Made by a program: the position numbers and the translations under genes
The notes under the pieces: model-generated
The model's database searches: none
Told to the model about the DNA's origin: nothing
Seen by the model: the letters and a program-made list of their open reading frames with translations, nothing else
In this document: positions 17,818 through 39,025 of the stretch, one piece after another
How the letters are laid out: the number at the start of each line of letters is the position of its first letter
Position numbering within the stretch: position 1 is the first letter of the stretch
Assembly: GCA_044892505.1 (NCBI GenBank)
Contig: CM097883.1
Location: 256,060,001-256,124,000 of the forward strand
Direction of reading: 5' to 3'
DNA from: Schmidtea nova
Lineage: Eukaryota
Length of the DNA: 64,000 bases

Positions 17818-19200
17818 TTACGTCAACCATCCTTTTCTATCCGCTTTCTCATTCCTTTCCATTTCTATGTATAGGGTGTCTGCATATAATCGTTCCCATA
17901 GGCTTTCTTTTGTTATAAACATCGGTTCTCCCGCTGCTAATCCACATTCTGTGGTTGGTTTCTCGCTCGTACTCGCATGTTTCTCTGTCTCAAAGAATTT
18001 TTCCACTGGTTTTGTTACACTTCTGATTCTTACAATGACTCCTACTTTCAAGGGCCATTCTACTAGGTCGTCGTATTCCCCTTTACATAGCGAGAAAAAT
18101 ATTGACACATGTGTTCCTCGTCCTCTTCCGTCTCCATTTGGGTATAGCTTCAATCTCACTTTAGCTCCGTTTCTCCATAAATAAAATGGTGGGCTTATTA
18201 CTGCTGTTTTCGTCATATTTCTGGCCTCTGTTAATTTGTCTCTAAAATCTGTCACTTTCCACACATATGGTGCGATTGGTAACTTTTCCTCGGTATCCTG
18301 GGTGAGTTTGTTGTACTGGATTTTCATTCCTTTAGCCAATTCTTCGATAGCTTTTATCTTTCCCTCCATCTTTTCTCGTGTTAGTTCGAATTGCTCTCTG
18401 GTTTCCAACAGTAGGTTTACCATTATCTTGTGTGACTCTATTTCTCTTTCTAATTTTGTGATTGTTTGTTCGGTTTCTTTTGTTGCTTCGTTTGTCATTT
18501 CCGCATGCTTTAGCAATGCTTCCTCCAGATGTTGTTTCATGGTTTGTTGCGTTCTTTTCTCCATACATCCCTGTTTGTTATAAGGACATTCCCTTGGTTT
18601 CTCCGTGCACACTTTCCAATGTTCTTGTAATTTTACTTCTACCGTTATCTCGCATTCGTTTGAACATATTCCTACATATTGTCTACATACTTTCTCCTCT
18701 TTTACATTCAGGTGTTCTTCTTCGATCTTTCTCCTCGTTTCTCGAGTTCCACAATATTCGCATAGACTTTCCTCTTCTTTACATTCATCTTTGTGCTGCT
18801 CTTTATTCTTTATAGTTATCTTTTGTTGGCATTTGTTACATTCAGTTCTCTTCTCTTCGCAGTTCTCCAGATGGTTCTCGAGATCGCGTATTTGTCCTTG
18901 CCATATACATGGTTGATTTATACATTCGGTTTTCGTGTTCATGATTTCTCTCTGAGTTGCTCTATCTGGTCCGGTTTCTTTGAATTTTATTTGTCCTTCT
19001 TTGCATTCTGGACATTCTGGTGGTCTTTTCATACTTAACTCGTGTATGCATTTGGTACATACTCTGCATCCGCATAGGGTTTGTCTTGGTTTCAATATTA
19101 TGTTTTTACAATTTACACAAGTGAGTCTCTGACTCCATTTCCTGTTCTCGGCTCTCAAAATTTCGATTATCCGCTCTTCGGCTTTTCCTTCTGTATTCAT
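17818..19200 (-). CDS. TRAF: Intronless TRAF-family protein (RING, TRAF zinc fingers, coiled-coil, MATH/TRAF-C), 460 aa
   Basis: CVNC...CGCRVCTKC...CPEC RING; CINQPCIWQGQIRDLENHLENC and ECPYNKQGC zinc fingers; YVWKVTDF...SPPFY...LKLYPNGDGRGRGTHVSIFF...GEYDDLVEWP MATH signature. Confidence 0.95.
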   Translation of the reverse strand: MNTEGKAEERIIEILRAENRKWSQRLTCVNCKNIILKPRQTLCGCRVCTKCIHELSMKRPPECPECKEGQIKFKETGPDRATQREIMNTKTECINQPCIWQGQIRDLENHLENCEEKRTECNKCQQKITIKNKEQHKDECKEEESLCEYCGTRETRRKIEEEHLNVKEEKVCRQYVGICSNECEITVEVKLQEHWKVCTEKPRECPYNKQGCMEKRTQQTMKQHLEEALLKHAEMTNEATKETEQTITKLEREIESHKIMVNLLLETREQFELTREKMEGKIKAIEELAKGMKIQYNKLTQDTEEKLPIAPYVWKVTDFRDKLTEARNMTKTAVISPPFYLWRNGAKVRLKLYPNGDGRGRGTHVSIFFSLCKGEYDDLVEWPLKVGVIVRIRSVTKPVEKFFETEKHASTSEKPTTECGLAAGEPMFITKESLWERLYADTLYIEMERNEKADRKGWLT

Positions 19201-19773: not shown

Positions 19774-22700
19774 CTATATCACCATCACTGTCTTTCCTTC
19801 GTATCGCTCTTCATCTTCTATTTGTCTCCAAAATTCTTTACCTTTCGTCCTCCTTTGGAATTCTTTCTGTACTTCTTCCGGTAATTCTATACTGTAGTTC
19901 ATAATCTTTATATCTGGCCAATGTGTTATTGGTTTCTTGTTGAATACATCATATATCCATATTATTAATAATACTGTTATTACTGGAATAGTTGCTGCTA
20001 GTATTCCTAGACCAAATAGTTCTCTAACTTGTTTGTTTACGTCCATCTTCGTAATTTCACTCTGGTTAATCATTGGTCCGTATTGTCCCTTTAGTTTAGT
20101 TAGTAGTTGTTCTCGTTCTTGTTGTTTTCTTTTAACTTCTTTAATTACTTCTTCCGGCGTCCATCTTGCGTAAGGGTCTATTACTACTTGTTCTGCGTCC
20201 ATTCGTTTCGTTGTCTGACTTAATTCTTTAAATTCGAGTTTTCTCACTTTCCCTTTGGACGTTGAGTTTACCGGTGTGTAGTACGTTTCGCATCTTTCCT
20301 GCTGATTTCCCAGTATGTCCGTCTTTTCTATCGCACATATCTCGTATTCGCTATTGAATTTCAGATTTCTGATACTTATTTCCTCTTTTCCTTTTACGTT
20401 TTCGCAGTATCGTGGCTGTCTTTCTTTTTGTTCCTGAACTACTGCCCAACATATTTCTAACGTTTTATTGTCTATTCTCCATAGTATAAGAGTTGCTGTA
20501 GTATTCTTTTCGGTTTTTATTTGTATTTCTTGGTTTTTCTGTTGTCCATTAGGTTTAAAAGTAGTGGTATACCTCGTTTTTCCTTTGTTCCGTTGTCTTC
20601 TGCTTTTTCGCGTTGTCTTTCCAATTCTTGTTCTGGTGGGTGTTTTATATATTTTGCATTCCAGTTCATTTACTGTTATTTTGTCGCTCTTCCTGATCAG
20701 GCATATTTCGTACGTTTGATTACTTTCTAACCCTTCTATCTGTATTGTGGTTGTTCCTCTGTTTGTTCGACATTGCGGCGGTGTATTCTGGTTTGTTTTC
20801 TTTTCCTGCTTCTTCCAGCATACGCCTTTGACGTCCGGTTCTATTCCGGTTAACTCTAACATTATAGTTGTTCTCCGTTTGGTGCGTTTATTTCTTCTTC
20901 CTCGTCGTATGAACTTTATTGTTTCCCCAGGTTGAAATGTTTTACAAATTGTCGTTCCTTTCTTGTGTCTTTCTTTTTCTAGTAAACATAGTTCATACGT
21001 CCTGTCTGCTTTTACTTCTGATATCTTGGTTACTTTATTTGTTTTCCTTTTCCGACTCGTCTTTATTTCGCTTACGCCAATTTCTTCGTTGCTTCTGGCC
21101 CAACACTTTGGGTTGGTGTTTTGGGTGTCGTTCATCTCTGTTACTGCCATTGTGTCAATGTCTATCCCTTCTTCTAACCGTTTTAACATTGTTAATATGA
21201 GTGCTAAACATAGTAATTCTGTTTGGTAGGTCACTCTTTCAGTTTCATTTGTGGTTACTCTTACTTCGGGCCTGTCTATGGTAATTTGTATAGTTGGCGT
21301 TGTTCGTCTGTCTATTGTCTGAGGTTTCTTGTTTTTTGTTCCTTGTGTCTCTGTTCTTCCACACTTTCCTACGACATAGTCTCCTTTGGATGACTGCTGT
21401 ACTGTTATGGTTACTTTGGGTGTTAGGTAATTTGCACATGCAATTGTCTTATGTGATCTCGGATCCTTTGGTTTCCGAACGGTGCACATTCTGTACCAAG
21501 TATCTAGCTCTAGGTCATCGATCTCTATGATTTCTTGTTCGTATTCTGAGATCCTGCAATCCATTGGACTATTTTGTCCCGAGATTTTGTCCTTTTTTGA
21601 CCAACATACTCGTTCGATTCCTTTTGCGTTTCCAATTTGTATTGTCGCTCTTTCTTCACATATCATTCCTTGAGTGGGACTAATTAAGGTCATGATTACC
21701 GTTAGTAATAATAGTTCTGGTTTAAAGAATGGGTTTATTGTTTGTTTGTAGCCTGTTCTTTTTACTTCGTTTTTATTTTTATAGTTGTTGTTTCTTTGTT
21801 TCCCAAATTCATTTTTCTTATCATTTTTCTCTGTGTCCCTTCCTTTCTCTTCACTGTCCTCTTTATCTGATAACTCATGATCCTCTGGATTTTCTCGAGT
21901 ACTATCGTCGTCGTTTCCTGTATTGTCGCCTCCCCTTTGGTCGTTGAAAATGTCGTCCTCGACATTAATTGCTTCTATCATTTTTTCATACGTTATGGTT
22001 GTGAGTATACTTGCTTCGTATTCTTGTGTTTCTGCCTGCTTAGGTATTTCCTTATCGGTTAATTTACAATCTAGAATCTCTTTCTTGGCTTTTATCCAAT
22101 TATTGAGGTACGTTTTCATTAGTTCTTTCCATTTGTCCGTACGTTCTGTTTCCTTTGGGTTGTTTGTGAATCGTAAATCTTTTCTTCTCATGAAGATGTC
22201 TATTATCTTTGGCCATTTGTTTATTATTAATGCACACTTTATATATAAATTCTGGCCTTGTTCCATGAACTCGTTGATCCTGAATGCTGGTTCATTGGTG
22301 TTTGGGTTCATCCAATTGAGTATTGCTTCGGTTAGTTCAGCGTTATGCATCATGAAATGTACGCTAGCTTTTTTAACCGTCCTTGTAAGATATTCTATTT
22401 CCTCCTGATTTGTGATTGTTTTTATAAAATTTATCACCTCCCAATTGTGCGCTAACAACGCTACGTCTAGTATTGAGCTGTCTTTGTTAGTTCTTCCCAT
22501 GAGTCCTGCACCTGCTTCGTACAGTTCCTGTAACACTCGGGTTTTTGTGTTCGCTCTTGCTGCGAATATCATGAGGGTATCTCCCTTTTTATCTTTCCTG
22601 TTCATGTCACTTCCGCAATCTTGCATCAACCGTGCAATTTCGACTACCCTCCTATCTTTTCCTGCTCGTAAGGCTCTATGTATTGGCAATACTCCATTCT

Positions 22701-25700
22701 TTGTTAATAAGAAAGTCACTGGCATTTCTCTTTTTATGATCATCATATCGTTTTCATTGTAAGTTCCTTCCGCATATGCGCGTACCTTTTCCACAATTGC
22801 TCCGAGTATCTCCAGTGTATGTTTAGAATTTTCGAATTCTGGTAATAGTTCTTTTGCTTTGTCCTGTATCGCATCTAACCTTTCTTGATATGGTACTTCT
22901 GCGCTGAAAAGTGGTGTAAATTTCCTTTTGCTTTCTCTTTCCTTTCGACATAGGAATTGTTTGCATTTTTCGGGGTGGTTTAATATGTCTATTAGTTTGT
23001 CATACTCCTCCTCCACCGTTTTGTATTTGTCTTGAAAATTGGATATATCTTTGTAAGTTATCGACTTGGTTAGCGATTTTGCACACCATTCCCTAATATT
23101 ACTGAATAATGCTTCTTTTTCACTTTCGAATTTATACTCCTCTTTGTTTTTGGAAATTGTGATATTTCTTCTGTCCAATACTATTAACAGTGTTTTCTGA
23201 TCACAAACTAATTTTAATAGGAATTGTAATAACGCGTTTTGTCCTTCACTGTATACCTCGTTTATATTTAATACCCATGTATCATTTTCGGATCTTTTCC
23301 ACTTTATTAGCTTGCGTATTGTTTTGCAGTTACCGATTTTTTTTGCCTCCTTGATTATATCACCTTTGATCAGTTCGTCTATTTCCCAAGTGGCCTTCTC
23401 GATTATTTGTTTGAGCATTATCTGATTTGAGCTCCATATTGCGTGATTCAAGACTGTTTTGTTTTCTCTATCGCGTTCCGTCCAGTTGAAATCGGCATTT
23501 ATCAAAAGGTCTATTATTGCTTTATCCGATTTGTAGATGGCTGCTACCATTAATGGTGTTTCTTGTTCGCTATTCCCAAAACCAAGGTGTTGGTTTGTTT
23601 CCTTAGCGATTTTTAGAAATTCTTTTACTCTCTCTACTTCTCCCCATTTTATGGCGTTATGTAATGCTGGTTGTCCTCCTATGTCTTCTAGTGAAAGTAT
23701 TTCTGGAATTTTTTCCAGTAGTTCTGAAATGACTGGTTTTGTTGGTAGTCCCCTTGCGTAATCACTAATTATCGACTGAATATCTCTTAATATATCGTCT
23801 CTGACATGCCATTTTCCCATTATTTCTCTGGCTTTTAGTACAATTTCCTTGTTTCTTTTTTCTTGTTGCTTGTTTTCTGCTTCGGTACTTTCATCGGTTG
23901 CTCTGAGCATATTTATCCTGGCTGTCTGGGATCTTGTTATTATTCGTTCTTCTGGCACTGTGGTTATTGTTTTTGGTACTTTCTTACATCTGCATGTATT
24001 AACGTATATTGGTCGTATCAATGGTCGATTAACAAGTTTTACCTTCACATTGTTTTCCTTTTTGTATATAACTTCGTAAGGGCCTTTTCCTGGTCGTTGT
24101 AGTTTTTTAACGGTTCCTGGTATTATTTCTGGGGTTTCTATCATTACCCAATCTCCGGGTTTAAGATCATTTGTTTTAACATTTTTCTTTTGATCGTGTA
24201 GGTCCTTGTAACTTTCTTGATAAAACTTTATGTTTAGTTCTGCTGTCTTCCATATCTCTTGCATTCGTTCTTTGAATTTGGTGACGTAATCATCTTCCTC
24301 CATATATTGAGACAAGGGTGGTTGATATTCAAGATCTATTGGCATATTGCATTCCCTTCCATACATTAATTGAAATGGACTCAATTTTGTTGCTGCGTGT
24401 ATCGACATTCGGTATGCCATTAGACATAGCTTTACGTATTCATCCCAATCTGTTTGGTGTTTGCTTACATAATTGGATAACATTCGAATCAATGTGCCGT
24501 TAAATCTTTCCGTTTGTCCGTTGGTTTGCGGATGATATGGTGACGTTCGTAATTTGGCTATTCTGAAGTAATTTGTCACTTCATCTAGTATTTCGCTCAT
24601 AAAATTTGTTCCTTGATCTGTTAGTATTTGTTTCGGGGTTCCGTATCGACAACATATTTCCTCTACTAAAATTCTTGCTACGGTCTTTGCTTTTTGATCC
24701 GGCATCGCAAATGCTTCAGGGAATTTAGTCAAATAATCCGTTATTACCAATATATATTGATTCCCGTTTAAACTTTCTGGCAATGGTCCTATTACATCCA
24801 TCGCAATGGTAGTCATTGGTTCCGCTGGTATTGGCATGGGTTTTAAAGGATTTTTCCATTTCTTCCCACTATCCTTTCTTGTGGCACAAGTTAAACAGTT
24901 CTTTATCCATTCCTTTACGTCTTCGTCCATTGTTGGCCAATAATATTTTTGTCTCATGCGATCTAATGTTTTCTTATTGGACATGTGTCCTCCCAACTTT
25001 CCGTCGTGGTATTGAGTTATTATCTCTTTTCGTCTATTACCTGGCAGACACATTAATCGTTTCTCTCCATCTCGTATTAATAACCATCCTTTTTCTATTG
25101 TGTATCGATGTTGGTATTTCCTCATGTGTTCTTTTAACTCCGCATTGTCTTTGAATACATCCATATTCCGTGAGCTTAGGAATTCTATGATGGGTCTTAG
25201 TTCTTTATCCTCTTGCTGATCTTTCTTCAACTCACTGAAATCCAAATCCTCTGCTATCATTATGCATATTCTTTGCACTTCTGGGTCTGTTAGTTCTGGA
25301 AACGTTAATCTTGACATGCAATCTGCGTTGGCATTCGCTTTTCCTGATTTGAATTTTATATCTGGTGAATATTCTTGTAATTGCATCGCCCATCTCATTA
25401 ATCTGCTGGATGTTTCCTTATGTTGTCCTAGCCATACAAGTGGTTGATGATCTGTGGTTATGCATATAACGTGTCCCCATAATAGATATTTAAAGTGTTT
25501 TATTGCTAATATTATTGCCAATGCTTCTCTTTCCGTTACTGAATAATTCTTCTCGTGTTTCTTGAATGTTCTGCTATAATATCCGATTACCCGCTCTTTT
25601 CCCTCGTCATCATATTGTCCTAACACTGCTCCTGCTGCATATCCACTTGCGTCGGTTGCGAGTAAAAATGGCTTCTTGAAATCCGGGTGAACCAATATTG

Positions 25701-25767
25701 GTGCAGTTATTAACTTATCTCGTAATGTTTCGAAGGCTGTTTGTTGTTCGCTTCCCCATATGAACAT
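19774..25767 (-). CDS. pol: Polyprotein 3' part: RT connection, RNase H, integrase, ankyrin modules, FN3-like ectodomain, TM
   Basis: ATDASGYAAGAVLGQ (RNase H). HDGKLGGH...CLTC, MDVIGP, TDQG, GQTERFN and GKGPY (integrase). Continues the upstream ORF after a 1-nt deletion. Confidence 0.95.
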   Translation of the reverse strand: MFIWGSEQQTAFETLRDKLITAPILVHPDFKKPFLLATDASGYAAGAVLGQYDDEGKERVIGYYSRTFKKHEKNYSVTEREALAIILAIKHFKYLLWGHVICITTDHQPLVWLGQHKETSSRLMRWAMQLQEYSPDIKFKSGKANANADCMSRLTFPELTDPEVQRICIMIAEDLDFSELKKDQQEDKELRPIIEFLSSRNMDVFKDNAELKEHMRKYQHRYTIEKGWLLIRDGEKRLMCLPGNRRKEIITQYHDGKLGGHMSNKKTLDRMRQKYYWPTMDEDVKEWIKNCLTCATRKDSGKKWKNPLKPMPIPAEPMTTIAMDVIGPLPESLNGNQYILVITDYLTKFPEAFAMPDQKAKTVARILVEEICCRYGTPKQILTDQGTNFMSEILDEVTNYFRIAKLRTSPYHPQTNGQTERFNGTLIRMLSNYVSKHQTDWDEYVKLCLMAYRMSIHAATKLSPFQLMYGRECNMPIDLEYQPPLSQYMEEDDYVTKFKERMQEIWKTAELNIKFYQESYKDLHDQKKNVKTNDLKPGDWVMIETPEIIPGTVKKLQRPGKGPYEVIYKKENNVKVKLVNRPLIRPIYVNTCRCKKVPKTITTVPEERIITRSQTARINMLRATDESTEAENKQQEKRNKEIVLKAREIMGKWHVRDDILRDIQSIISDYARGLPTKPVISELLEKIPEILSLEDIGGQPALHNAIKWGEVERVKEFLKIAKETNQHLGFGNSEQETPLMVAAIYKSDKAIIDLLINADFNWTERDRENKTVLNHAIWSSNQIMLKQIIEKATWEIDELIKGDIIKEAKKIGNCKTIRKLIKWKRSENDTWVLNINEVYSEGQNALLQFLLKLVCDQKTLLIVLDRRNITISKNKEEYKFESEKEALFSNIREWCAKSLTKSITYKDISNFQDKYKTVEEEYDKLIDILNHPEKCKQFLCRKERESKRKFTPLFSAEVPYQERLDAIQDKAKELLPEFENSKHTLEILGAIVEKVRAYAEGTYNENDMMIIKREMPVTFLLTKNGVLPIHRALRAGKDRRVVEIARLMQDCGSDMNRKDKKGDTLMIFAARANTKTRVLQELYEAGAGLMGRTNKDSSILDVALLAHNWEVINFIKTITNQEEIEYLTRTVKKASVHFMMHNAELTEAILNWMNPNTNEPAFRINEFMEQGQNLYIKCALIINKWPKIIDIFMRRKDLRFTNNPKETERTDKWKELMKTYLNNWIKAKKEILDCKLTDKEIPKQAETQEYEASILTTITYEKMIEAINVEDDIFNDQRGGDNTGNDDDSTRENPEDHELSDKEDSEEKGRDTEKNDKKNEFGKQRNNNYKNKNEVKRTGYKQTINPFFKPELLLLTVIMTLISPTQGMICEERATIQIGNAKGIERVCWSKKDKISGQNSPMDCRISEYEQEIIEIDDLELDTWYRMCTVRKPKDPRSHKTIACANYLTPKVTITVQQSSKGDYVVGKCGRTETQGTKNKKPQTIDRRTTPTIQITIDRPEVRVTTNETERVTYQTELLCLALILTMLKRLEEGIDIDTMAVTEMNDTQNTNPKCWARSNEEIGVSEIKTSRKRKTNKVTKISEVKADRTYELCLLEKERHKKGTTICKTFQPGETIKFIRRGRRNKRTKRRTTIMLELTGIEPDVKGVCWKKQEKKTNQNTPPQCRTNRGTTTIQIEGLESNQTYEICLIRKSDKITVNELECKIYKTPTRTRIGKTTRKSRRQRNKGKTRYTTTFKPNGQQKNQEIQIKTEKNTTATLILWRIDNKTLEICWAVVQEQKERQPRYCENVKGKEEISIRNLKFNSEYEICAIEKTDILGNQQERCETYYTPVNSTSKGKVRKLEFKELSQTTKRMDAEQVVIDPYARWTPEEVIKEVKRKQQEREQLLTKLKGQYGPMINQSEITKMDVNKQVRELFGLGILAATIPVITVLLIIWIYDVFNKKPITHWPDIKIMNYSIELPEEVQKEFQRRTKGKEFWRQIEDEERYEGKTVMVI
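19950..21720 (-). other. C-terminal membrane-protein module of the polyprotein: signal peptide, 4 FN3-like repeats, polybasic sites, TM
   Basis: PELLLLTVIMTLISPTQG|MICEE. Repeats share C-W...(I)xxL...Y-x-[IML]-C...C-x-x-[YF]-x-[TP]-P. RNKRTKRR at ~20872-20907. Sequons NET, NDT, NQT, NTT, NST, NQS. TM LFGLGILAATIPVITVLLIIWI. Confidence 0.65.
22420..23680 (-). other. Two ankyrin-repeat modules (~3 repeats each) after integrase
   Basis: GQPALHNAI, QETPLMVAA, ENKTVLNHAI (~23400-23680); GVLPIHRAL, KGDTLMIFAA, KDSSILDVAL (~22420-22705). Confidence 0.85.
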
Positions 25768-28700
25768 ACGTCTTTCTTTACTAGCTCCTGGATTGGTTTT
25801 GCAATTCCTGCGTAATCCTTTATGAATTTTCTATAGTAACCGCATAATCCGAGAAATTCTTGGATCTGCGTTATCGTCTTTGGTACTGGACATTCTTTTA
25901 CTTTATCAATGTTTCTGGGATCTGGTTCCTTTCCTTTTGCGGACACAATATGTCCTAAGAATGTCACTTTCTCTTTTGCCCAATCGCATTTCGATGGTTT
26001 GAGCTTGAGTTTCCATTGTCTCAATCTCACAAATACATCTCTGATATCTTGGATGTGTTGTTCAAATGTGCTTGAGTAGATTAGTAGGTCATCAATGTAA
26101 ACCATGCATTGTTTTATGCCGTGGGTGACAAAATTCATACATCTTTGAAATGATGCTGGTGCATTGGTTAGTCCAAATGGCATTTTCCTAAATTGGTACA
26201 AGTCTCTTCCGATAGTGAAAGCAGTTTTCTCTTTGTCTTCCTCTTTCATTTTAATTTGCCAGTATCCGCTTTTCAAATCCAATGATGTAAAATATGCCGC
26301 TCCTTGTAATGTCAATAACATCTCGTTGATGTCTGGTAATGGGTATGTATCCCTTTTTGTTACCGCATTTAATCTCCGATAATCAATACAAAACCGTTGT
26401 GTTCCGTCTTTCTTTTTCACCATTACAACTGGGAATTGCCACGGTGAGCAGCTTGGTTCAATTACTTCTGCGTCTAGCATTTTCTGTACTTCTGCTTCTG
26501 CTACTGATTTTTGCGCTTCAGCTAACTTGTATGGTCTTAACGCAATAGGCGTTTTGTCTGTTAGTGGAATCGTATGTAGTGTGACGTCGCATGTCCCTAG
26601 ATCTAAATCGGATGCTGCGAATATGTCTTTATATTCCATCAGTAACCTTTCTAGCTGTTTCTTTTGATCCTCATTTAGTAGTTGGCTATCAATGTTCCAG
26701 GTGGGTTCCTCCTCTTTTACTCCTTCTTTTATTGGTATTTCGATATCTATCATTGGAGTTAGTTTACCTAGTCTTTCATTTTCATAAATTATTTTATCCT
26801 CTTCATCGAAATTTACTACATTTATTGGGATTTCTCCGTTGTCATTCGCACTCACTAATCCCCTTGCCATTGGCAACGACTTTCTCTTTTCAAATCTTTT
26901 ACTGGGTTCAAAAATCATGTCACCTTCTATTGTAGGGTCTATTTTTACGAAGCATATTTTCTCTCTCCGTGCTGGTACGATTATTTGTTTCGAACTTGTT
27001 ACTTTTGCTTCTATTGCGCATATCTGTCCTGTCCTGTCCTTTAGTCTCATTGTTCCGAGATCAATAACTATTTCTTTAAATAATGCTGGCATTAAATCTG
27101 TGCCTATAATGCATGGTACGCTTAGTGCTGGTATTACTGCTACGTACGTTTCGATTTCCGTGTTTTGATGTTTTATCTTTACCCACCATCTTCCGGCAAC
27201 TTCTACTACTTCTTTACTGCATGCTATTACGTGAACGTTGGTTCTCTCGATATCCCGTCTTTGTTCTTGTGGTATCCATTTTATATCTATTGCTGAGATA
27301 TTTGCTCCTGTATCAATCATCGCTTCTATTTCCCTTCCGTTAATTTCGATTGTTGTAGTTAATACCGGACCGGTGTTTGATGACATTACTGCAATTGTAT
27401 GTGAGTCTCCTTGCGGATCTACGCTTCTGCACCGTCTCGTTCTATAGTCTTCTGGTATCATAGGATATATGTTTGTCATCGGCATCATTTGCATTGTATT
27501 TTGTCTCATCCCTGGTGTTGGTTCTTGGTACATGGTTGGTGGGGGTGCGTAACACTTCCACATTTCCGCTGGATTCTTTTCGACATACTGTGGTACTTGA
27601 TTTTTAAATACTTGACCTCCTTCGTTATCATCATCATCGTCGTCACTGGAATCGTCTTGGGTTCTGTACCCTTTCATTCTTTCCCATAGTCCTTTTCTCT
27701 CTTTCTTTAGTTGTTGTCTTGCTTGCTCGTTATTCATTATCTTTTTAAATTTTCGTCCCACCTCTTCATCGGTTCCTTTCATTTTTGCCAGTATTTTTAG
27801 GAGTCTCTTTATTCGGTGAATATCTTTTGAATGACCGTGTAATACCATTGTTTTAGCCAAAAATGGTAAGAATCCTACCACCAATTTCCAATTTACTTTC
27901 TTTTCTCTTTTATAGATGTCAAAACAGGCTAACATTTGCGTTATTATTACCCGTATTATTTGTATAATTAGTATAACACCAAGTATTCCTGCCATCATTT
28001 GTCCAAATATTAAAAATCTTCCCCACATCGCTTTCATCATGTTTTCCGTTGCCTTCTTAAAGTGGGCTGGTGACAATAATAATTCGTAATTTGGTCCACC
28101 TTGGTAATTTGTTCCTCCTGTTATTGTTACAATGCTGGATAACACCGCTTCCATTCTTGCTGGAAATAGTATGTTTTGTCTTGCTGCTTCTAAGTCTTTT
28201 GCGCTATAGAATCCCATATTACTTACATCTACGTCTTTAAATTTTCGTCCTTTTGATAGTTGCATCAATTCAAATTCCCTTGGTGCTGGTACCTCTGTTC
28301 TTGACGGAAACATAACCCAATTCCCGTCTGGTTTTTGGTATAGTGGTCCATATGCGTTGCTGCAATTGAAAGGATTTGGTTCGAAGCTTATTGGATTTAT
28401 GATTCTTGTCACTGGTTGCACATATCTTACTTTCCCTTTATATTCGATTTCTAGTTCGTTAGTACACTGACCTGGTTGTAATTTTGTCATTGTCGCTACC
28501 TTCGCGTTTGTCTTTTTACATATGTATACATACATGACCTCTCCGACTACCCTTCCAAAATGACCTTCTCTCAATGGTAATAATGGCATTGCACTATCAG
28601 GGTTTGTGATTGCTACCGCTAGTTTTGTCTTTAATATTTCCCTATTTAATATGCAATCGTTGTTAATTAAATCGTAATACACTTTTTGTAGTGACGCTTG

Positions 28701-31700
28701 TCCTCTATGGAACAGAAAATCCATTTTATTGTTCATGTAAAGGTGTAATTTAACATCGTTCGTGTGCACTTTGCGTTTCGCACTAGGTACTTCTTGTTTT
28801 GATACAAAAATGCCGGGGTAGTTGGTTTCCAACATAGCTACTCCGCATTTCAAGGCTGTTTTTCCTTTTACAAACCTCATTCCGATATCTGCATCTGAGG
28901 TAATTAGTACCGTTGGTGTATTTCTCATTTTAATTTGTTTTTCTTGTGTTCGGGTTTCAATCTTTTTCTCTCCTCGTACTGTGTCTTGAAGTATTTTTCC
29001 TCTTGCTACCTCGTCTTCTTCTTCCTCTTGGAAGGTTTTCCCTTGTATCTCATCGAATTCTGCTTCCTTTAACAGTTGTAGTTGACATTCCTTTCCTCGT
29101 ATCTGGTAGGTTAAGGTTGACATACCGGTTTGGCAAGTGTTTGACTCGATTTTGCACATGGGCAGGGTTTTCATTTCTCCCGTTGTTGGATCGAAGAATG
29201 CCTCGTACGTTTTTAATTCTACTGTATAGGTATCTATTACCACTAGGTTTGTTGCTGCTACTCCGAATATTGGATATGTTGCTCCTTGGCAGTACCCTTC
29301 TCCTCCCGTAATAGCTCCTGCTACATAATAAGTTTGTTGCAATATCACTCCCGTTTTTCCTCTTATCTTTACTCTATCTCTAGTCTCTACTTCTCCATGT
29401 TTAAATAATTTTTCGCAGTCTTCTCCTTGCAGCATTACCGATTCTCTTTCCGTTCCTGGCATCACGATTGCTGAATAATGGCGGTGTCCACAATAAAAAG
29501 CAAATCTGGTTTTATAAACTTTGCATTCCCTGACCATTGTTCTTATCAGTTCAGCTTCCTGATATACGTGGTATAATTGTCTCTTTTTTAATGTTTTTAA
29601 CTCCGTTGGGGTTGCGTCCTTACATTGTTCTGTCCCTCGTAGTGAATATTTCTCACCTAATGCCATTTGATCGCAATCGAATACTTCAAATGCTGTTGCG
29701 CCGTCAGTACTAATCATCCATATTAACATCATCATAATAATGGAACTCAAGTTTAGTGACGATTTCCCGTTTCCTGTTCCCGACTTTTCCTTTTCCAATT
29801 CTCCCAATATCTCTTCGAATTTCCTTTTCATATTTTTGGCTTGGTTTTTCTTTTGGTTCGTTTTTGTGAATGTCTCCCATCCTCCTTTACTGATGATGTA
29901 CGGTTCTATTTCCTTCTCTATAATTTTGGCTGTATTCTTTATATGTCTTTCAAGTGCTGTGGGTTTCAGTCGACCTCTACTCAGTGTCAGCAGATTGTAA
30001 ATGGTGTATGCCATAGCTATTAAATATTTGTTATCCGTCTCTGCTCCTTCCGTTAACTTCTTTATCAACATCGTGGTTCCTTGCCAATCTAGGTGGTTTG
30101 ACCTTGTCTTCTCTTTTATTAATTCTGGTAGGATTGGTGCGATGGCGCTATGCAGTGATTTCGCCCTTTCGCTTATTTCGTTTATTCTCCACCATTTCTT
30201 TAATTCCGGATCGATTATTGCCAGTATTTCTATTAACATCTTTGATATCCATTCTTCGCCTTGGTATGTTTGTGTTGTTTCTTTTTCTTTCGTTTCGGCT
30301 ATTTTATTTAGTTTCTTTAGACACAAATCCCATTGATCCCGTCTTTTTTCCTCTCTTGATTTTATCACTACATTTGCTGGATCTATCTTGGGTCTACCTC
30401 TAGGTCGTTTATCCATTGTCGTGCCCATTTCTACTAATCTTGTTTCTCGTCCAGTTTCTTCTGTGACGTCTCTTGGTTCATTGGCTCTTTCTTCTAACCA
30501 TCTTTCCATTTCTTGTGTGAATTGTACATTTTCTACATTTGCCCTCCTTGCTTCCTCTTCTGCTATTTCATTTACTTCTTCGATGATTATTTCTTGTTCA
30601 ACTTCATCTTCGGTGTTGGTTACCGGTATTGCTGTTGGTAATTCTTGAATTCTTTCGAAAATATTATCATCTTTCTCTTTTGTTAGCTCTATTAACTCCT
30701 CTAACATATCATCGCTATCTGTAAAAATTTCGTCTACATCGTATGGTTCTGGTGGTGTTCTTTCTCTTGTCTCTCTTGGTGTTGTTCTAGCTTGTTCTGA
30801 GCTTGTTCCTGGAGTCATTACCGATTTCATTGGGCTCGGCGTACTCATACTTCCTTTTGGTTTCTTTTCCTCTTTCAATTTTAATGGTTGGCCTGCTATT
30901 GCTGCCACTGTCAATGTATTTGCGATATCTAATTGCGCTGGCGTTATTCCAATTTCTAAGCTGTTATCTAATGATCGTCCTTGGTGTTGTAAATGGAATG
31001 GTGGTTCATATCTCAATTTCTTTTTAATGTCTCGAACTTTCTCCGCTATCCCTACCCAAAACTCTTCTTTTTCCTGGTTCGGATATACTATTCTTAGGTG
31101 TACTTTCTGTGGCGATTCCTGCGAGAATTCCTGGTTTCTCCATTTTTTAATTACGTGATCCAATTGTTCTGGACACCACTCGTTAACTCTTTTGTATTCG
31201 GCGATTGCTTTTGCTACTTTACGCAAGCATGTTATGTCTTCTCCATTAACTACGAAAAAATCTGCTAGACCTTTTACTACTTTTCTCTTGCCGTGCGCAT
31301 TGGTTTTTAATATTTCGACAAATTCCTCTGTTTTTTGTTTCTCTCTTTCCAACCACATGGTTGCCGTTTCTGGTCCGTCTAAATCTGCTGGCATGGCTTT
31401 TCTTGTTACCATACAAACCCTTCCCGTTTCCGGTTTGTGATCGTCTTCTATGCCTATTTCGTATTCCTCTTCGTATTCGCCTGCTTTTGGTTCCCAACAT
31501 TTTCCTCGTTCGTTCCATTGTTTTTCTACAGGTGTTCGTAATCGTCTGTTGAGATTGAGTTCTTCTAATACATCTTCCCATTCTGGCCAAATCCGCCAAT
31601 TTCGATAAATGTCTACTATTTGTTGTAATTTATGCACAACTTCTTTTTGTCGTTCCCGTTCTCTTTTCTCATCCTTAGCAGTTTCTCTTGGTTTATCGTC

Positions 31701-34700
31701 CATTCTGATAACGTGGATGGTTTGGTGATTATCCCATATACCAATTTTATATAGCCGTCTTTCATCGTGATCCCATAATACATGTTCGTTGTATTTCATG
31801 ATTATGTCATCTTCCCATTCTTCTTCTGGTTCTCTTTGTAATAGTGTCTCGTTGATGACATTTACTAATTCTTTTATGGTACAATCTGCTACCACTTCAA
31901 TTTCTTTGGTATCCTCATTAGGTAACTCTACTGCAATTTTCAGATCTGTTATTTTCCCTTGTCTGAACATTGCTTTTCCCATTTTGGCAATTACTTTTCC
32001 GTATGAGATCTGTGACCATCTCGTGTGACTTGTGTCACGTATGCACTCGATACATCGTTTTAACTTTTCGTATTCGCTTCTCATTAACTCCTTTCTATGT
32101 TTTTTGATTTGTGGGATGATTTGTTCTATCATGGAATTTAGATTTCCTCGTAAGATTCGTCCTTTCTCATATTCTAACCGTGGTTTTATCTTCTTCTCGA
32201 AACACATATTTGCTTCCTTTGCTACTTCTTGTAGGTTCTCTTCCCTCTTATCATCGCATATCGATAATGTCGTCACCTCTCCTGGCCATATGCCTGTTTC
32301 TATCAAATGCGTCCTTTTCTTCACTAGTCCATTCTGTGAATAGAGGAATTTGTTTTTATATGAACTCCCTAATCTATCTTCTACCCATTGATAAATATCT
32401 TCCGTGAGTGGAGTTTTGACCCAAATCCTTGGCAAACATGTTTTTATCTCTATTAGGATTATATATTCATGGAGTGGTTCTTTTAATAATTTTCCTACGT
32501 ATTGGCTTAGTGTTTCTACTTCCCTGCCTGGTAACCACTCTTTATAGTTCATTTGTAATATCGCTCTCATGAATTTTCTATAGTGTTTCTTGTCAATGAA
32601 TTCCTCATTATATATTACTTCTAGCGTATTATCTAATAATTTCTGGATCTCGTCTTCTTTTACTTGAATAGTTCCTGGTGTCTTTACTACTTCTATCTTT
32701 TTGTCTTCAATTTCTGGTTCGTTTAGCATGTCCCCTGCTAGACTACTGACGTCACTATCCTCTTCGTCGTCTGAAAAATTCCTTGCCTGGCCTCTCAACA
32801 TGTTAATGTGTTTTATTTGGTTGATTTCCCTTGGTGTATTTTCCGTGGGTCTTGTTTCACTTTTAATAGCTTTTTGTGTTGATTCACTCTTGTCGTCTAC
32901 TACCTCGACCTTTCTCATTTTTCGTTCTAACTCGTCTATTTCTTCCAGCCGTCTTCGTATCATTTTCCCTTTAAATATTCGACTGATTCGTGTTTCGTGA
33001 CGCACTGGCGATGGAATTCCTTCTGGTTCTATTTCCTTGATTACCATCACATTTCTTTTTGTCTCTACTACTCCCATGTTTTCCCATGTATCCGTTAGTT
33101 TCAATTTTACTTCTGGTGCACCTTCTATTTTTAGGAATACTTCTCTGGGCAGTTTCGTTACTCCTGGAGCCATTTCATTCACTTTATTGAACAATATTTC
33201 TACTTCTTCCTTTATGTTATATTGGAATCGAAACACGTGCTTGTTTGGCAATATTACCATCATTCCTCTTTTCCCGAGTTTCCTTTTCTCTTCTTGGTTC
33301 CTTTCTTTTTCTACTTCCTTTTCTGTTTCTTTTTCTGCTTCTTCATCTTCTTGTATTATCTCTTTTCGGCCTTCGTTGTTGGTTGGATTCGGGTTTGTTA
33401 GATTTATTTCTGGAACAGTCTCTTTCTCGTGGGTATTTGTTTGATTGGTTGCTCTCATCATATTAATTCTTAGAGGTTGTCGTTCTCTTTCTTGCTGTTT
33501 TTGTTCCTCTTCTCTTTGTATTCTTGCCCATTCCTGAGCATGTCGTGCTTGGCTTTCTCGATTCAATCGTTCGTTTTCGCTTTCTATTTTTCTCATCATA
33601 TTGATTTGTTGTTGACCTGTTTGCGGATTTCCTCTGGTTGTATTGTTTATCAGCTCCGTCAATCTTTGAACCTCTTGCATTAAATGTATCTCTTTAGTGG
33701 TATTTTTATTTTGGTTATTATTATTACTATTTGGTTGGTTTCCGTATTCCGGTTGGTTTCCATTATTTGGCTGATTCCCATAATTCTGTCGGTTTCCACC
33801 AGTTGGTTGGTTTCCATAGTTTTGTCGGTTTCCGGTATTCTGCCAGTTTCCTCGTTGATTGCTTCTTTGTCCGCAATTTCTTGATAGGTGTCCAGGCCGT
33901 CCACAATTAAAACAGGTTATTGTGTAACATCTGCTCTCTGAATGCCCTTTTACTCCACATTTTCCACAATTCAAGTTCTGATAACATTCTTGTTGCCAAT
34001 GTCCCAATTTCCCACATGTTTTACATTGTTTCGTTGGTCCTTGGGGGTTGTAATTGCTTTGATTTCCGAAATTTGATACTTTATTCCCTTCATTCCTTCG
34101 TTGCGGTGGTGGTCGGTTTAATTGTTGTGAATTTGGAATGTGGTTATTCAGGTTCACTTCTTGTTCGTTTTGTGCTGTATCCATAGCTAAATAGATTCTA
34201 CCATCATTTCCTATCATGTGTAGTTCAAATCTATTAGCTGTTTCTAATGCTTGGTCAATAGTTTTACACCCTTGACATCCAACTTGCGCTCTTATGTCGG
34301 GTCTTCTTAATCCTCCCACAAAGATAGCTGCCATTAACTCTTCATTTATTGGACTGTCTTGATTGAAAATCAACTTTGCCAACTTTTTTAATTCGCTTGC
34401 ATATACCGCATTTGATTCATTTATCTTTTGTTTCCTCATTGAGAATTCCGTGAATGCCTCATTCAATACTTTGTTTATTCCGAAGGTTTGTTGGAAAAAG
34501 TCCTTTATCGCTGACCAACTTGTAGGTGGATTAATTCCATTTTTTGCTTCCAAATATAGATCTAATGCGCTATCTTTTAAATATAGCTGAATTCTGCTTA
34601 CAGTTGTTTCTGGTTTCCACTTGCATACTTCCACGAATATGCCAAATTCCTTTAAGAAAGTTTCTAATTTACTCGCATCTCCATTAAACGGTTCTCCGGA

Positions 34701-35162
34701 AAATTTGTCTTTTATCTCTTCTCTTGGTTCACTCATTTCGATTCCGCTGTCTGTAGTTATTTTACTTTCGTTTCCTCTTGTTTCTAGTTCACTGTTAGGT
34801 TCGTCACTCGAATTTCGGTCGATCTCAGTTTCTTTTGCTGATTCGTTATCTGATGCTTTACTATCGTTATCGGTATCGTCACTTTCTGTTTCTTGTTCTA
34901 CTTCGTCTTCTATTTCTTCTATATAATCGTTGTTGGTTTTGTCGACTTCTATTTCACTTATTGGGTTTCTCTCGGGTTCTGCTTGATTTTCTTTGTTGCT
35001 TGAACTGTTGCTTGTTACTGATAATTTATCGTTTTCGATAATCGACTTTTGTATTATTATCTGCCTTGCTTTACTTCCTTTTAGGCCTTTCTGATTATTA
35101 TTCTTGGTAGCTTTATTCTTTTCTGCTGGTTTTATTATGACACTCTTTTCTCCTTTTCTCAA
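25710..35162 (-). CDS. gag-pol: Polyprotein 5' part (3,150 aa): Gag, UBL x4, AT-hook, Bcl-2-like, fusion glycoprotein, protease, RT
   Basis: Uninterrupted 9.45-kb ORF with PFNGD capsid-like region, three CCHC knuckles, DTG protease and RT (FCIDYRRLN, DLKSGYWQ, MPFGL, YIDD). Track start is TTG; first ATG is at 34736. Confidence 0.95.
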   Translation of the reverse strand: MRKGEKSVIIKPAEKNKATKNNNQKGLKGSKARQIIIQKSIIENDKLSVTSNSSSNKENQAEPERNPISEIEVDKTNNDYIEEIEDEVEQETESDDTDNDSKASDNESAKETEIDRNSSDEPNSELETRGNESKITTDSGIEMSEPREEIKDKFSGEPFNGDASKLETFLKEFGIFVEVCKWKPETTVSRIQLYLKDSALDLYLEAKNGINPPTSWSAIKDFFQQTFGINKVLNEAFTEFSMRKQKINESNAVYASELKKLAKLIFNQDSPINEELMAAIFVGGLRRPDIRAQVGCQGCKTIDQALETANRFELHMIGNDGRIYLAMDTAQNEQEVNLNNHIPNSQQLNRPPPQRRNEGNKVSNFGNQSNYNPQGPTKQCKTCGKLGHWQQECYQNLNCGKCGVKGHSESRCYTITCFNCGRPGHLSRNCGQRSNQRGNWQNTGNRQNYGNQPTGGNRQNYGNQPNNGNQPEYGNQPNSNNNNQNKNTTKEIHLMQEVQRLTELINNTTRGNPQTGQQQINMMRKIESENERLNRESQARHAQEWARIQREEEQKQQERERQPLRINMMRATNQTNTHEKETVPEINLTNPNPTNNEGRKEIIQEDEEAEKETEKEVEKERNQEEKRKLGKRGMMVILPNKHVFRFQYNIKEEVEILFNKVNEMAPGVTKLPREVFLKIEGAPEVKLKLTDTWENMGVVETKRNVMVIKEIEPEGIPSPVRHETRISRIFKGKMIRRRLEEIDELERKMRKVEVVDDKSESTQKAIKSETRPTENTPREINQIKHINMLRGQARNFSDDEEDSDVSSLAGDMLNEPEIEDKKIEVVKTPGTIQVKEDEIQKLLDNTLEVIYNEEFIDKKHYRKFMRAILQMNYKEWLPGREVETLSQYVGKLLKEPLHEYIILIEIKTCLPRIWVKTPLTEDIYQWVEDRLGSSYKNKFLYSQNGLVKKRTHLIETGIWPGEVTTLSICDDKREENLQEVAKEANMCFEKKIKPRLEYEKGRILRGNLNSMIEQIIPQIKKHRKELMRSEYEKLKRCIECIRDTSHTRWSQISYGKVIAKMGKAMFRQGKITDLKIAVELPNEDTKEIEVVADCTIKELVNVINETLLQREPEEEWEDDIIMKYNEHVLWDHDERRLYKIGIWDNHQTIHVIRMDDKPRETAKDEKRERERQKEVVHKLQQIVDIYRNWRIWPEWEDVLEELNLNRRLRTPVEKQWNERGKCWEPKAGEYEEEYEIGIEDDHKPETGRVCMVTRKAMPADLDGPETATMWLEREKQKTEEFVEILKTNAHGKRKVVKGLADFFVVNGEDITCLRKVAKAIAEYKRVNEWCPEQLDHVIKKWRNQEFSQESPQKVHLRIVYPNQEKEEFWVGIAEKVRDIKKKLRYEPPFHLQHQGRSLDNSLEIGITPAQLDIANTLTVAAIAGQPLKLKEEKKPKGSMSTPSPMKSVMTPGTSSEQARTTPRETRERTPPEPYDVDEIFTDSDDMLEELIELTKEKDDNIFERIQELPTAIPVTNTEDEVEQEIIIEEVNEIAEEEARRANVENVQFTQEMERWLEERANEPRDVTEETGRETRLVEMGTTMDKRPRGRPKIDPANVVIKSREEKRRDQWDLCLKKLNKIAETKEKETTQTYQGEEWISKMLIEILAIIDPELKKWWRINEISERAKSLHSAIAPILPELIKEKTRSNHLDWQGTTMLIKKLTEGAETDNKYLIAMAYTIYNLLTLSRGRLKPTALERHIKNTAKIIEKEIEPYIISKGGWETFTKTNQKKNQAKNMKRKFEEILGELEKEKSGTGNGKSSLNLSSIIMMMLIWMISTDGATAFEVFDCDQMALGEKYSLRGTEQCKDATPTELKTLKKRQLYHVYQEAELIRTMVRECKVYKTRFAFYCGHRHYSAIVMPGTERESVMLQGEDCEKLFKHGEVETRDRVKIRGKTGVILQQTYYVAGAITGGEGYCQGATYPIFGVAATNLVVIDTYTVELKTYEAFFDPTTGEMKTLPMCKIESNTCQTGMSTLTYQIRGKECQLQLLKEAEFDEIQGKTFQEEEEDEVARGKILQDTVRGEKKIETRTQEKQIKMRNTPTVLITSDADIGMRFVKGKTALKCGVAMLETNYPGIFVSKQEVPSAKRKVHTNDVKLHLYMNNKMDFLFHRGQASLQKVYYDLINNDCILNREILKTKLAVAITNPDSAMPLLPLREGHFGRVVGEVMYVYICKKTNAKVATMTKLQPGQCTNELEIEYKGKVRYVQPVTRIINPISFEPNPFNCSNAYGPLYQKPDGNWVMFPSRTEVPAPREFELMQLSKGRKFKDVDVSNMGFYSAKDLEAARQNILFPARMEAVLSSIVTITGGTNYQGGPNYELLLSPAHFKKATENMMKAMWGRFLIFGQMMAGILGVILIIQIIRVIITQMLACFDIYKREKKVNWKLVVGFLPFLAKTMVLHGHSKDIHRIKRLLKILAKMKGTDEEVGRKFKKIMNNEQARQQLKKERKGLWERMKGYRTQDDSSDDDDDDNEGGQVFKNQVPQYVEKNPAEMWKCYAPPPTMYQEPTPGMRQNTMQMMPMTNIYPMIPEDYRTRRCRSVDPQGDSHTIAVMSSNTGPVLTTTIEINGREIEAMIDTGANISAIDIKWIPQEQRRDIERTNVHVIACSKEVVEVAGRWWVKIKHQNTEIETYVAVIPALSVPCIIGTDLMPALFKEIVIDLGTMRLKDRTGQICAIEAKVTSSKQIIVPARREKICFVKIDPTIEGDMIFEPSKRFEKRKSLPMARGLVSANDNGEIPINVVNFDEEDKIIYENERLGKLTPMIDIEIPIKEGVKEEEPTWNIDSQLLNEDQKKQLERLLMEYKDIFAASDLDLGTCDVTLHTIPLTDKTPIALRPYKLAEAQKSVAEAEVQKMLDAEVIEPSCSPWQFPVVMVKKKDGTQRFCIDYRRLNAVTKRDTYPLPDINEMLLTLQGAAYFTSLDLKSGYWQIKMKEEDKEKTAFTIGRDLYQFRKMPFGLTNAPASFQRCMNFVTHGIKQCMVYIDDLLIYSSTFEQHIQDIRDVFVRLRQWKLKLKPSKCDWAKEKVTFLGHIVSAKGKEPDPRNIDKVKECPVPKTITQIQEFLGLCGYYRKFIKDYAGIAKPIQELVKKDVCSYGEANNKQPSKHYEIS
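25800..26560 (-). other. Reverse transcriptase core
   Basis: SPWQFPVVMVKKKDG, LDLKSGYWQ, MPFGLTNAPASFQR; YIDD at 26088-26099. Confidence 0.97.
27050..27370 (-). other. Retropepsin aspartic protease
   Basis: AMIDTGANIS (DTG at 27306-27314) and IIGTDLM. Confidence 0.95.
27835..29750 (-). other. env: Envelope-like fusion glycoprotein, chuvirus G / class III-like, in frame between Gag and protease
   Basis: Signal SSIIMMMLIWMISTDGATA|FEVFDC. Cys pattern ECKVYKTRFAFYCGHRHYSAIV, GYCQGATY, KCGVAMLETNYPGIFV, YMNNKMDFL, DCILNREIL, VVGEVMYVYIC, CTNEL, PVTRII, CSNAYGPLY. TM GRFLIFGQMMAGILGVILIIQII. Confidence 0.85.
29865..30340 (-). other. Bcl-2-like domain
   Basis: All-helical ~160 aa ending in BH2-like IEPYIISKGGWETF. 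Divergent BH1-like DNKYLIAMAYTIYNLL. A hydrophobic anchor follows ~35 aa later. Confidence 0.65.
30387..30410 (-). other. AT-hook motif KRPRGRPK
   Basis: Exact HMGA-type AT-hook consensus, in frame (aa 1585-1592). Confidence 0.75.
30898..33270 (-). other. Four ubiquitin-like (beta-grasp) domains with helical spacers
   Basis: ~33030-33270, 32250-32465, 31700-31947 (IAVELPNEDTKEIEVVADCTIKELVNVI...IMKYNEHVL...LYKIGI...TIHV) and 30898-31106 (LQHQGRSLDNS). No C-terminal GG. Confidence 0.7.
33872..34710 (-). other. gag: Gag capsid-like domain and three CCHC zinc knuckles
   Basis: EPFNGDASKLETFL...LYLKDSALDLY; CKTCGKLGHWQQEC, CGKCGVKGHSESRC, CFNCGRPGHLSRNC. Confidence 0.92.
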
Positions 35163-37053: not shown

Positions 37054-37515
37054 TTATAAATAAACTACAATTTTATCAGCTACAGAGAAATTGCACATGG
37101 GGCACTCATCACACTTGTTCGCACAGTTTTTACAGAATCGAAAATGTCCACATGGAAGAAACATTATTTGGATTTCACTGTCTTCGCATATGTAACATTG
37201 TTTATAGTGTTTTGCTGCCTCGACCCCTTGCGACATCCATCGGTTATATGTTAGACTTAACTGCTGTTCTATATGTCGGCATCTAATATTCAACTCGGCA
37301 TCCTCTAATCGTGCTTTGTACCATTTATATCGCGTATTTATATCGAGTTTATTCACTTTCTCTATGATTTTTATTAACTCAGTTGTTTCCTCCGTTTGTG
37401 TCGTAGGTTCCTCATATTCGGATGCTCTTATTCGGGTTATTTTTTCGCAGACTGTCTCAAATGTATCGTTCTCGGTGTTGAAAAATTCCTCGATTTCTTT
37501 CAGTTTTTCCTCCAT
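37054..37515 (-). CDS. Accessory protein with C-terminal IAP/XIAP-type RING finger (153 aa), between PBS and gag
   Basis: CYICEDSEIQIMFLPCGHFRFCKNCANKCDECPMCNFSVADKIVVYL at the extreme C-terminus. No BIR domain seen. Confidence 0.88.
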   Translation of the reverse strand: MEEKLKEIEEFFNTENDTFETVCEKITRIRASEYEEPTTQTEETTELIKIIEKVNKLDINTRYKWYKARLEDAELNIRCRHIEQQLSLTYNRWMSQGVEAAKHYKQCYICEDSEIQIMFLPCGHFRFCKNCANKCDECPMCNFSVADKIVVYL

Positions 37516-37855: not shown

Positions 37856-37873
37856 ATCCCGGCTGAGCCCCCA
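37856..37873 (-). other. Primer-binding site, tRNA-Pro type
   Basis: TGGGGGCTCAGCCGGGAT, 16/18 identical to the classical tRNA-Pro PBS TGGGGGCTCGTCCGGGAT; 6 nt from the LTR end. Confidence 0.88.
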
Positions 37874-38440
37874 AATTTATGCTGGGATTATGGGTGGGTT
37901 TTAAGTAATTCAAATAAATTATTAATCATTAATTGAACGACTATTGATGAGTACGTTTACTAGGGATTTCCACGCCCATAACCATACATAACATGACTAC
38001 TACACGCGTATGCCCTTGACTATTCCCTACTAGTCAAGTTGGTACTGCATACGGTGGTGGAAAAATGATGGGCAGGTGAGCTTTGTTGCCAAAACTACTC
38101 CCCATTTATCTTCCCTCGGGTCCTTGCTGCCGATAGAAGGTCTTACGCATTTACATTCTATGGATGTTCGTTTCTTACTGCATTTTATACTACATATCCT
38201 TATGATCTATCATACGCTTTTCCCAATGACTTTCCTTAATTGATCTACAATGTAATTAATCAGTCTCGGCGTAGAAATGGTCGGTTTGAGAAAATTACGG
38301 ATGCGATTTTCTATTTCGATGATTTCAGTGTTGTTAATTTATTTTATTTAGTAACCTCGCCCGATGAGAGACAAAATTTACACAGAAAATACTTTTATTA
38401 AAATACTAAAATCAGGTTGTTATTTTACATGGATATTTTC

Positions 38441-39025
38441 CTAAGCGAATTCCAGACTGATCTCCTGAATCAACTCCGCTTCGGTTAAGGAGTTCAAGTG
38501 GTGGATTTGTTCGTCCAGGCGCTTTGCAACTTCTCGGCGACGACGACGCTGTCGCGATCCCATTCGGTGTTTCCGAAGCTGTTGGTTTATGACCGGTGCT
38601 GACGCTATTGTTCTCGGGGGATCACTGAGAAAAACAGGCAAATCTTCCGTTGTAAGAGAGGGGGCCATGATGATTCCCTCTTCCGTCCCGCAAGCGACAT
38701 CTTGGTGAGTGCATTGTATCCAGCGCTGAGCTGTGATCGGCCGGATTAGCGCTCGTAATTCGGAGTCGATGTAACTTCTTGTTACTGCATTTAGGCAATT
38801 TCGGAGTTCTCGCTGGACGGCATCTAGTTCCAATTTGGTTGTGGCCAGTGCTTCCTGCATTCGCTCCAGTTTTTTCGACTGGTCCTTCATTTGTTCGGGC
38901 GAGAACCACTTCGCTCTCAATTCATCGTTGGCGACCGTGAGTCGCTTGATCTGGCGCTGCTGGTCCCTCAACTTCCTCTCTTGGATTTGTCCCATGATTT
39001 TCTTGGAATTTTCTGAAGTCGGCAT
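38441..39025 (-). CDS. LTR-encoded ORF-B (194 aa); 5' LTR copy
   Basis: Same as 12997-13581 except V14I. Confidence 0.6.
   Translation of the reverse strand: MPTSENSKKIMGQIQERKLRDQQRQIKRLTVANDELRAKWFSPEQMKDQSKKLERMQEALATTKLELDAVQRELRNCLNAVTRSYIDSELRALIRPITAQRWIQCTHQDVACGTEEGIIMAPSLTTEDLPVFLSDPPRTIASAPVINQQLRKHRMGSRQRRRRREVAKRLDEQIHHLNSLTEAELIQEISLEFA

Follow-up and report, generated by a model that had tools for sequence, protein, structure and literature searches.

A giant Burro-like Ty3/gypsy retroelement of Schmidtea nova with a predicted class III fusion glycoprotein encoded between Gag and protease

The subject of this work is a retroelement found in a 64,000-nucleotide stretch of Schmidtea nova DNA (assembly GCA_044892505.1, contig CM097883.1, positions 256,060,001 to 256,124,000 of the forward strand). 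We refer to this whole stretch as the window and count positions within it. The element is very probably a giant, young, multicopy, Burro-like member of the Ty3/gypsy long terminal repeat (LTR) retroelements, in which a predicted class III envelope glycoprotein (env) is likely synthesised within a single polyprotein and likely released by an internal signal sequence and the element's protease.

The env stretch lies at 29750-27835 on the minus strand, which also carries the rest of the element. It corresponds to residues 1816-2454 of a frame that runs for 3161 codons without a stop (35195-25710; first ATG at 34736). From sequence alone, the original prediction had described a cysteine-patterned ectodomain with its own signal peptide and C-terminal transmembrane (TM) segment, upstream of a DTG protease. 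This description was borne out. A hydrophobic stretch at residues ~1817-1832, which ends in an A-T-A|F site of signal-peptidase type, forms the predicted internal signal sequence (29691-29747), with cleavage expected after residue 1835. The ectodomain (28023-29690) contains 14 cysteines. A single strong hydrophobic stretch at residues 2392-2421 is the predicted stop-transfer helix (27933-28022). The D-T-G protease follows this helix by about 190 residues, in the same frame.

Env matches the Pfam family PF24664 (Monjiviricetes_fusion) with E=2.6e-68; the score is 231 bits, where the cut-off is 27. The AlphaFold2 model, made from a 125-row alignment, has a mean pLDDT of 89.4; its N-terminal half is rich in beta structure and its central helix spans 48 residues. 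When the model was compared with the PDB using Foldseek, the rows listed were all herpesvirus gB (best E=9.5e-15). Among viral models, the top rows were mostly chu-like, with qin-related and xinmovirus glycoproteins (E to 5e-35); rhabdo-, nyami- and bornavirus G and gB stood lower in the same listing. A profile of env against PDB sequences gave gB in 37 of 38 matches, although these were weak (best E=0.002). Atlas agreed with a gB-type env, with a low recognition score. Taken together, profile search and structure prediction give good support to env being a class III fusogen with a gB/chuvirus-G fold, as first proposed. The nearest named viral relatives are indeed chuvirus-like glycoproteins.

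The carrier has the features of a Ty3/gypsy element. The 5' LTR (37880-41226) and 3' LTR (12436-15782) are each 3347 bp long, have TG...CA ends, and differ from one another at 3 of 3347 bases. A 4-bp target-site duplication (12432-12435 and 41227-41230) flanks the pair. The full element is 28,791 bp and its internal part 22,097 bp. Six nt inward of the 5' LTR is an 18-nt primer-binding site (37856-37873) that corresponds to the 3' end of host tRNA-Pro; the pattern has 899 matches across the genome. Gag is followed by protease, reverse transcriptase (RT), RNase H and integrase (H2C2 and rve). The LTRs and this domain order confirm the gypsy-type carrier originally proposed. No clear long polypurine tract was visible by eye ahead of the 3' LTR (15810-15783). 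A BEL/Pao (Anakin-type) carrier was considered and rejected; Pfam scans of the three main open reading frames (ORFs) gave zero Pao-type protease- or RT-associated domains. Separately, host tRNA-Pro genes form a long tandem array with a 308-bp period, near 459.6 Mb of C1, and their 3' end fits the element primer site.

In the window copy, the first part of the polyprotein (25710-34736) contains 3008 residues from the first ATG and comprises Gag, cargo, env, protease and RT. Gag (33873-34736) has a capsid-like region and three CCHC zinc knuckles (Retrotrans_gag E=4e-4). The retropepsin (27084-27356; RVP E=3.7e-08) has its D-T-G motif at residue 2626, and the RT core with its YIDD motif lies at 25944-26420 (RVT_1 E=1e-37). 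The protease-RT spacer of ~110 residues is conserved. Env had been placed between Gag and protease. It is in the same frame as both, but it does not directly follow Gag; a cargo of about 1370 residues, with candidate ubiquitin-like modules and a Bcl-2-like domain, intervenes. The ORF had also been called uninterrupted. It is open through RT, but the window copy is broken before RNase H (25830-25710). This break is absent in all 39 other copies examined and belongs either to the window copy alone or to the assembly. The second part of the polyprotein (19774-25830) contains RNase H, integrase, two ankyrin blocks and, at its end, a second signal, a fibronectin type III (FN3)-like region and a TM helix.

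We then examined the coding frame in other copies. Env used as a DNA query yielded 825 candidates, and the best 40, all at least 97% identical over env, were scored. Of the 39 other copies, 23 are free of stops and frameshifts between the first ATG and the RT end. Across these 39 there were 25 distinct breaks, 24 of them in a single copy. Stops within env occurred in four copies, none common to two. The gag-env-pol order is real: it is common to the other copies, and no stop or frameshift separating env from its neighbours recurs at either env border. Of 20 other copies that were read further, 12 kept an open frame up to the long ORF's end, and the TRAF ORF described below was complete in 18. 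Since most copies are open and the RT/RNase H break is absent elsewhere, the family layout is one ORF of about 4,990 codons. In having multiple near-identical intact copies, the family resembles the HSV/gB-type GAG-ENV-POL errantiviruses. Of 13 stretches from a second family in the genome (about 35% identical in env and about 48% in RT), taken mostly from rows having long open frames, 11 show this order within one frame. This second family (L090-L109) is shorter and has many copies, with Gag, Bcl-2-like domain, env, protease, RT, RNase H and integrase. Genome-wide, PF24664 gives 3412 candidates.

Env is likely synthesised as a portion of one polyprotein of ~5,000 residues. Gag and the cargo would be produced in the cytosol. 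The internal signal would then start translocation into the endoplasmic reticulum (ER), and signal peptidase would free the env N-terminus. Of 18 sequences examined, 17 were aligned, and in all 17 a hydrophobic stretch lies within the 30 residues that precede the N-terminus of mature env. Signal-level hydrophobicity is reached by 3 of 100 windows along this polyprotein, and two of these are the env signal and TM helix. The C-terminal helix of env would halt transfer, so that protease, RT, RNase H and integrase remain cytosolic. The element protease could then cut at words of the form I-N/C/A-M/V-hydrophobic, releasing the env tail, Gag and the enzymes. These words recur near several domain borders, and the pattern also matches inside domains; from the sequence they are likely protease sites. 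Trimers of env would coat particles and so enable entry into other cells. The 1:1:1 synthesis of Gag, env and Pol that had been proposed would follow from unspliced genomic RNA only; splicing or turnover could alter the ratio.

It is unlikely, in our view, that the same protein is expressed in another way, with env or env-pol coming chiefly from a message that is spliced or starts internally, Gag from its own shorter message, and amounts that are not 1:1:1. Some single-ORF LTR elements do overproduce Gag through splicing, and here methionines are found just before and inside the signal (residues 1790 and 1821-1823). However, there is no stop after the TM helix, so an env-started product would still read into Pol. 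Furthermore, shared synonymous variation shows no sharp dip at the env start, with 11-16 variable codons per 100 against an ORF range of 6-26, a comparison of low power. Synthesis of env within the single chain is hence the reading that we retain.

We next sought the imprint of selection on env. The ratio of nonsynonymous to synonymous polymorphism (pN/pS) was calculated from variants common to at least two of the 40 copies; for the second half of the polyprotein, 17 of 20 copies were kept. The env ectodomain has 100 synonymous and 5 nonsynonymous shared variants (pN/pS 0.013). Corresponding values are 0.023 for RT, 0.044 for the protease, 0.108 for the Bcl-2-like domain and 0.10 for the ubiquitin-like region. 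The second ectodomain is least constrained (0.34). The difference between env and RT is not significant (p=0.47), whereas env is far below the cargo (p=3e-7). Env is under strong purifying selection and is as constrained as RT. Conversely, env variants found in a single copy are much less purged (0.21, compared with 0.013 for shared variants; p=9e-10) and include five stops. Purging of shared variants, and less of single-copy ones, thus fits selection on env during transposition. Synonymous divergence is highest in env, despite the choice of copies by env identity, which may have lowered env divergence. We propose that transposing lineages keep env intact because it lets the element enter other cells.

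Env could alternatively be kept for a role outside particles, such as local cell-to-cell passage, ER budding or some advantage to the host. An advantage of this kind is reported for Burro1, whose IAP cargo protects stem cells in planarians (Lee et al. 2026, cited in PMC13465017), and the portions of the literature that our search returned contained no particle reports. Even so, we consider such a role improbable. Purging is strongest in variants shared by dispersed copies and weaker in single-copy variants, which fits selection at the transposition stage rather than at host loci. In addition, the entire fusogen fold is kept. Use of env on particles therefore remains our preferred explanation of its conservation.

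To place env among its relatives, we used HMMER, which returned 940 sequences. The best full-length relatives are polyproteins with 29-41% identity and E values to 1e-134. Twelve polyproteins were scanned; PF24664 was present in all, a protease followed it in 10 and a Gag signature preceded it in five. Stand-alone G proteins of ~650 residues rank next, with 20-29% identity and E values from 3e-35, and two of these are named chuvirus glycoproteins. In the env tree, a single branch (support 99) unites all 15 polyprotein-borne rows and three fragments and excludes the named chuvirus rows; two further rows, which have long N-termini and lack a protease, are placed among the stand-alone proteins. 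For nine elements with both RT and env, the three supported splits of the RT tree, which was built from unnamed relatives, reappear in the env tree. RT and env identities correlate (rho 0.75, 35 non-independent pairs). Env groups with polyprotein-borne envs and tracks the RT tree, so we conclude that it was inherited with pol in an old env-bearing lineage.

The phylogeny does not bear out the independent capture that had been suggested. That this gypsy lineage recently and independently acquired a chuvirus G gene might be argued from the chuvirus glycoproteins being the best named stand-alone relatives, and from GAG-ENV-POL elements not forming one clade according to PMC13524379, so that the layout may have arisen repeatedly; but polyprotein-borne envs are far closer than stand-alone G, form one branch and track RT, which largely refutes 'recent' and leaves such a capture very improbable. 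For an ancient exchange of env with Jingchuvirales or negative-strand viruses, the unrooted tree gives no direction. An endogenous chuvirus fragment was also considered and rejected: env is inside a retroelement ORF, the main ORFs have no N or L match, and env groups with retroelement envs. As a separate observation, relatives P0154, P0004, P0006 and P0007 have several extra retropepsin-like domains per polyprotein, with up to six stretches in P0154.

The in-frame gag-env-pol layout was already in print by 2019, a 2026 catalogue covers it in several phyla, and this element is a further example. The order, at first regarded as unusual, is therefore not new; it has been described in planarian Burro (PMC6431247) and in elements of flatworms, nematodes and bryozoans (PMC13524379). 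In planarian Burro/GYPSM1, an ORF1 of 4,873 or 5,140 residues carries ubiquitin-like, BCL2, MATH/TRAF and ankyrin motifs. Its env lies between BCL2 and protease, matches mononegavirus glycoproteins and was called the first env known to lie in frame between gag and pol (Arkhipova & Yushenova 2019, PMC6431247). Like Burro1-4/GYPSM1 and a Dugesia tigrina element, the S. nova element is near 30 kb, with long LTRs and one ORF of ~4,900-5,100 residues (here about 4,990 codons). The three-CCHC Gag, a BCL2-like motif, the BCL2-env-protease order, ankyrins and MATH/TRAF are also common to Burro, and the candidate ubiquitin-like modules may correspond to the Ubi2/SUMO-like motif of Burro. There are differences. 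Here TRAF has an ORF of its own, which follows the polyprotein downstream, whereas it is inside ORF1 in S. mediterranea Burro and upstream in D. tigrina. The Burro env was also likened to gypsy Env/F-type proteins (PMC6431247), whereas our model is class III. Finally, the second signal, FN3-like and TM module at the polyprotein end sets our element apart from Burro. We file the element as Burro-like, and not as Burro1, because a BIR match is missing from the ORFs scanned; the upstream ORF has a RING only.

Elements of GAG-ENV-POL order with a gB-type glycoprotein occur in Nematoda, Bryozoa and Platyhelminthes (Chary & Hayashi 2026, PMC13524379). The same authors note resemblance of the glycoprotein to chuvirus envelope and gB, argue for ancient acquisition, and describe the entry mechanism of gB-bearing elements as unknown. 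Their six S. mediterranea elements (Smed_errantivirus_1-6) have coding spans of 14.5-18 kb and 1-215 copies. These share with ours the Ty3/gypsy pol, the gB-type env with signal and TM helix, and the GAG-ENV-POL order; by eye, domain I-II of the Smed_errantivirus_5 env has the same eight cysteines and several identical motifs. Conversely, our element is a distinct family by sequence and has a clear tRNA-Pro site, whereas no tRNA primer is listed for Smed_errantivirus_1-6 (PMC13524379). Nematode gag-env-pol metaviruses (Sacco et al. 2022, cited in PMC13524379) also have env between gag and pol, but in another host phylum. Mosquito BEL/Pao elements with a chuvirus-like glycoprotein (Dezordi et al. 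2020, PMC7642597) share the glycoprotein superfamily and belong to another retroelement superfamily.

Several points weigh against our interpretation. The element is known here from its sequence and predicted structure, and the cleavage sites and topology rest on hydropathy and motifs. TM-scores of the env model to herpes gB are only 0.32-0.44, and the env ectodomain has a lone N-glycosylation sequon. The env tree is an unrooted FastTree reconstruction of 118 rows, of which only two are named viral sequences. Copies were picked by env identity, which biases the sample to young copies with undamaged env. Likeness to Burro was judged from the published description. No BIR domain was matched in the ORFs scanned, including the upstream RING ORF, and the protease-RT spacer, the place of a dUTPase-like domain in Burro, has no Pfam or PDB match to dUTPase. 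Because its RT/RNase H frame is broken, the window copy is probably unable to supply its own integrase.

The Bcl-2-like domain (29826-30353) lies immediately ahead of the env signal and is recognised by several individually weak but mutually consistent matches. The best profile match in the PDB has E=0.002. The model has a pLDDT of 53, which is low confidence, and all structure matches listed are to the Bcl-2 family (E 0.01-0.1). E values of the Pfam Bcl-2 match are 0.12 in this element, 0.005 in its sister family and 0.001 in relative P0008. The domain ends about 45-60 residues before the env cleavage site, and the same junction, Bcl-2-like domain then signal, occurs in the sister family and four independent relatives. 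Cellular Bcl-2 proteins carry a C-terminal membrane anchor. We suggest that the cleaved env signal might stay as the C-terminal membrane anchor of the Bcl-2-like domain; this double use of the signal may be new.

The polyprotein C-terminal end (21714-19939) has a second signal-like stretch, a region of ~540 residues in which cysteine motifs recur, and then a TM helix. This second ectodomain has no Pfam match. All its Atlas neighbours are fibronectin type III proteins (score 0.86), which is no more than a lead. As the least constrained part, it is a candidate host-facing surface protein. A bolder and quite tentative reading is that the element may be an actively spreading invertebrate retrovirus with a flavivirus-like giant chain. 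Such a chain would cross the ER membrane four times, setting free both the gB-like fusogen and an FN3-like surface protein that evolves faster. The env signal would stay attached to the viral Bcl-2-like protein as its C-terminal membrane anchor, so that control of cell death would be tied to the making of env. We did not find this shared-anchor, four-pass arrangement in the passages on such elements that our literature search covered, a set without the 2026 Dev Cell paper on Burro1.

The remaining features are as follows. The ubiquitin-like cargo region (30876-33308) was delimited largely by eye; one of four candidate segments matches Ubiquitin_4, with E=0.045, below the cut-off. Three to four helical-plus-ubiquitin-like modules are visible by eye in the same region. 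An upstream accessory ORF (37054-37515) encodes 153 residues with a C-terminal C3HC4 RING (PF13920 E=1.4e-11), a placement that we take to be the IAP-type position. Between this RING ORF and gag, the leader (36600-35700) has several tandem repeat arrays with periods of about 61, 41 and 45 nt. The separate TRAF-like ORF (17818-19200) encodes 460 residues with a RING-like motif, a TRAF zinc finger and MATH. A further accessory ORF (16640-17701) has no Pfam match and is in two pieces in this copy. Each LTR encloses two ORFs of 194 and 158 residues (13581-12997 and 14387-13911, and their twins in the other LTR), also without Pfam match. Elsewhere in the window, a 545-codon ORF on the plus strand (2115-3752) has DUF4371 and a C17orf113-type zinc finger and is probably a DNA-transposon remnant. 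At 50159-52420 and 52944-54001 lie two elements that are non-coding, partly N-masked and bounded by long terminal inverted repeats.

The population evidence from these copies, that env is as constrained as RT in recent transposition, supports the idea that Burro-like elements may be working enveloped retroviruses. This young, high-copy family is a tractable case for studying the processing and use of a lone gB-like fusogen that the element would synthesise as part of a Gag-Pol chain.

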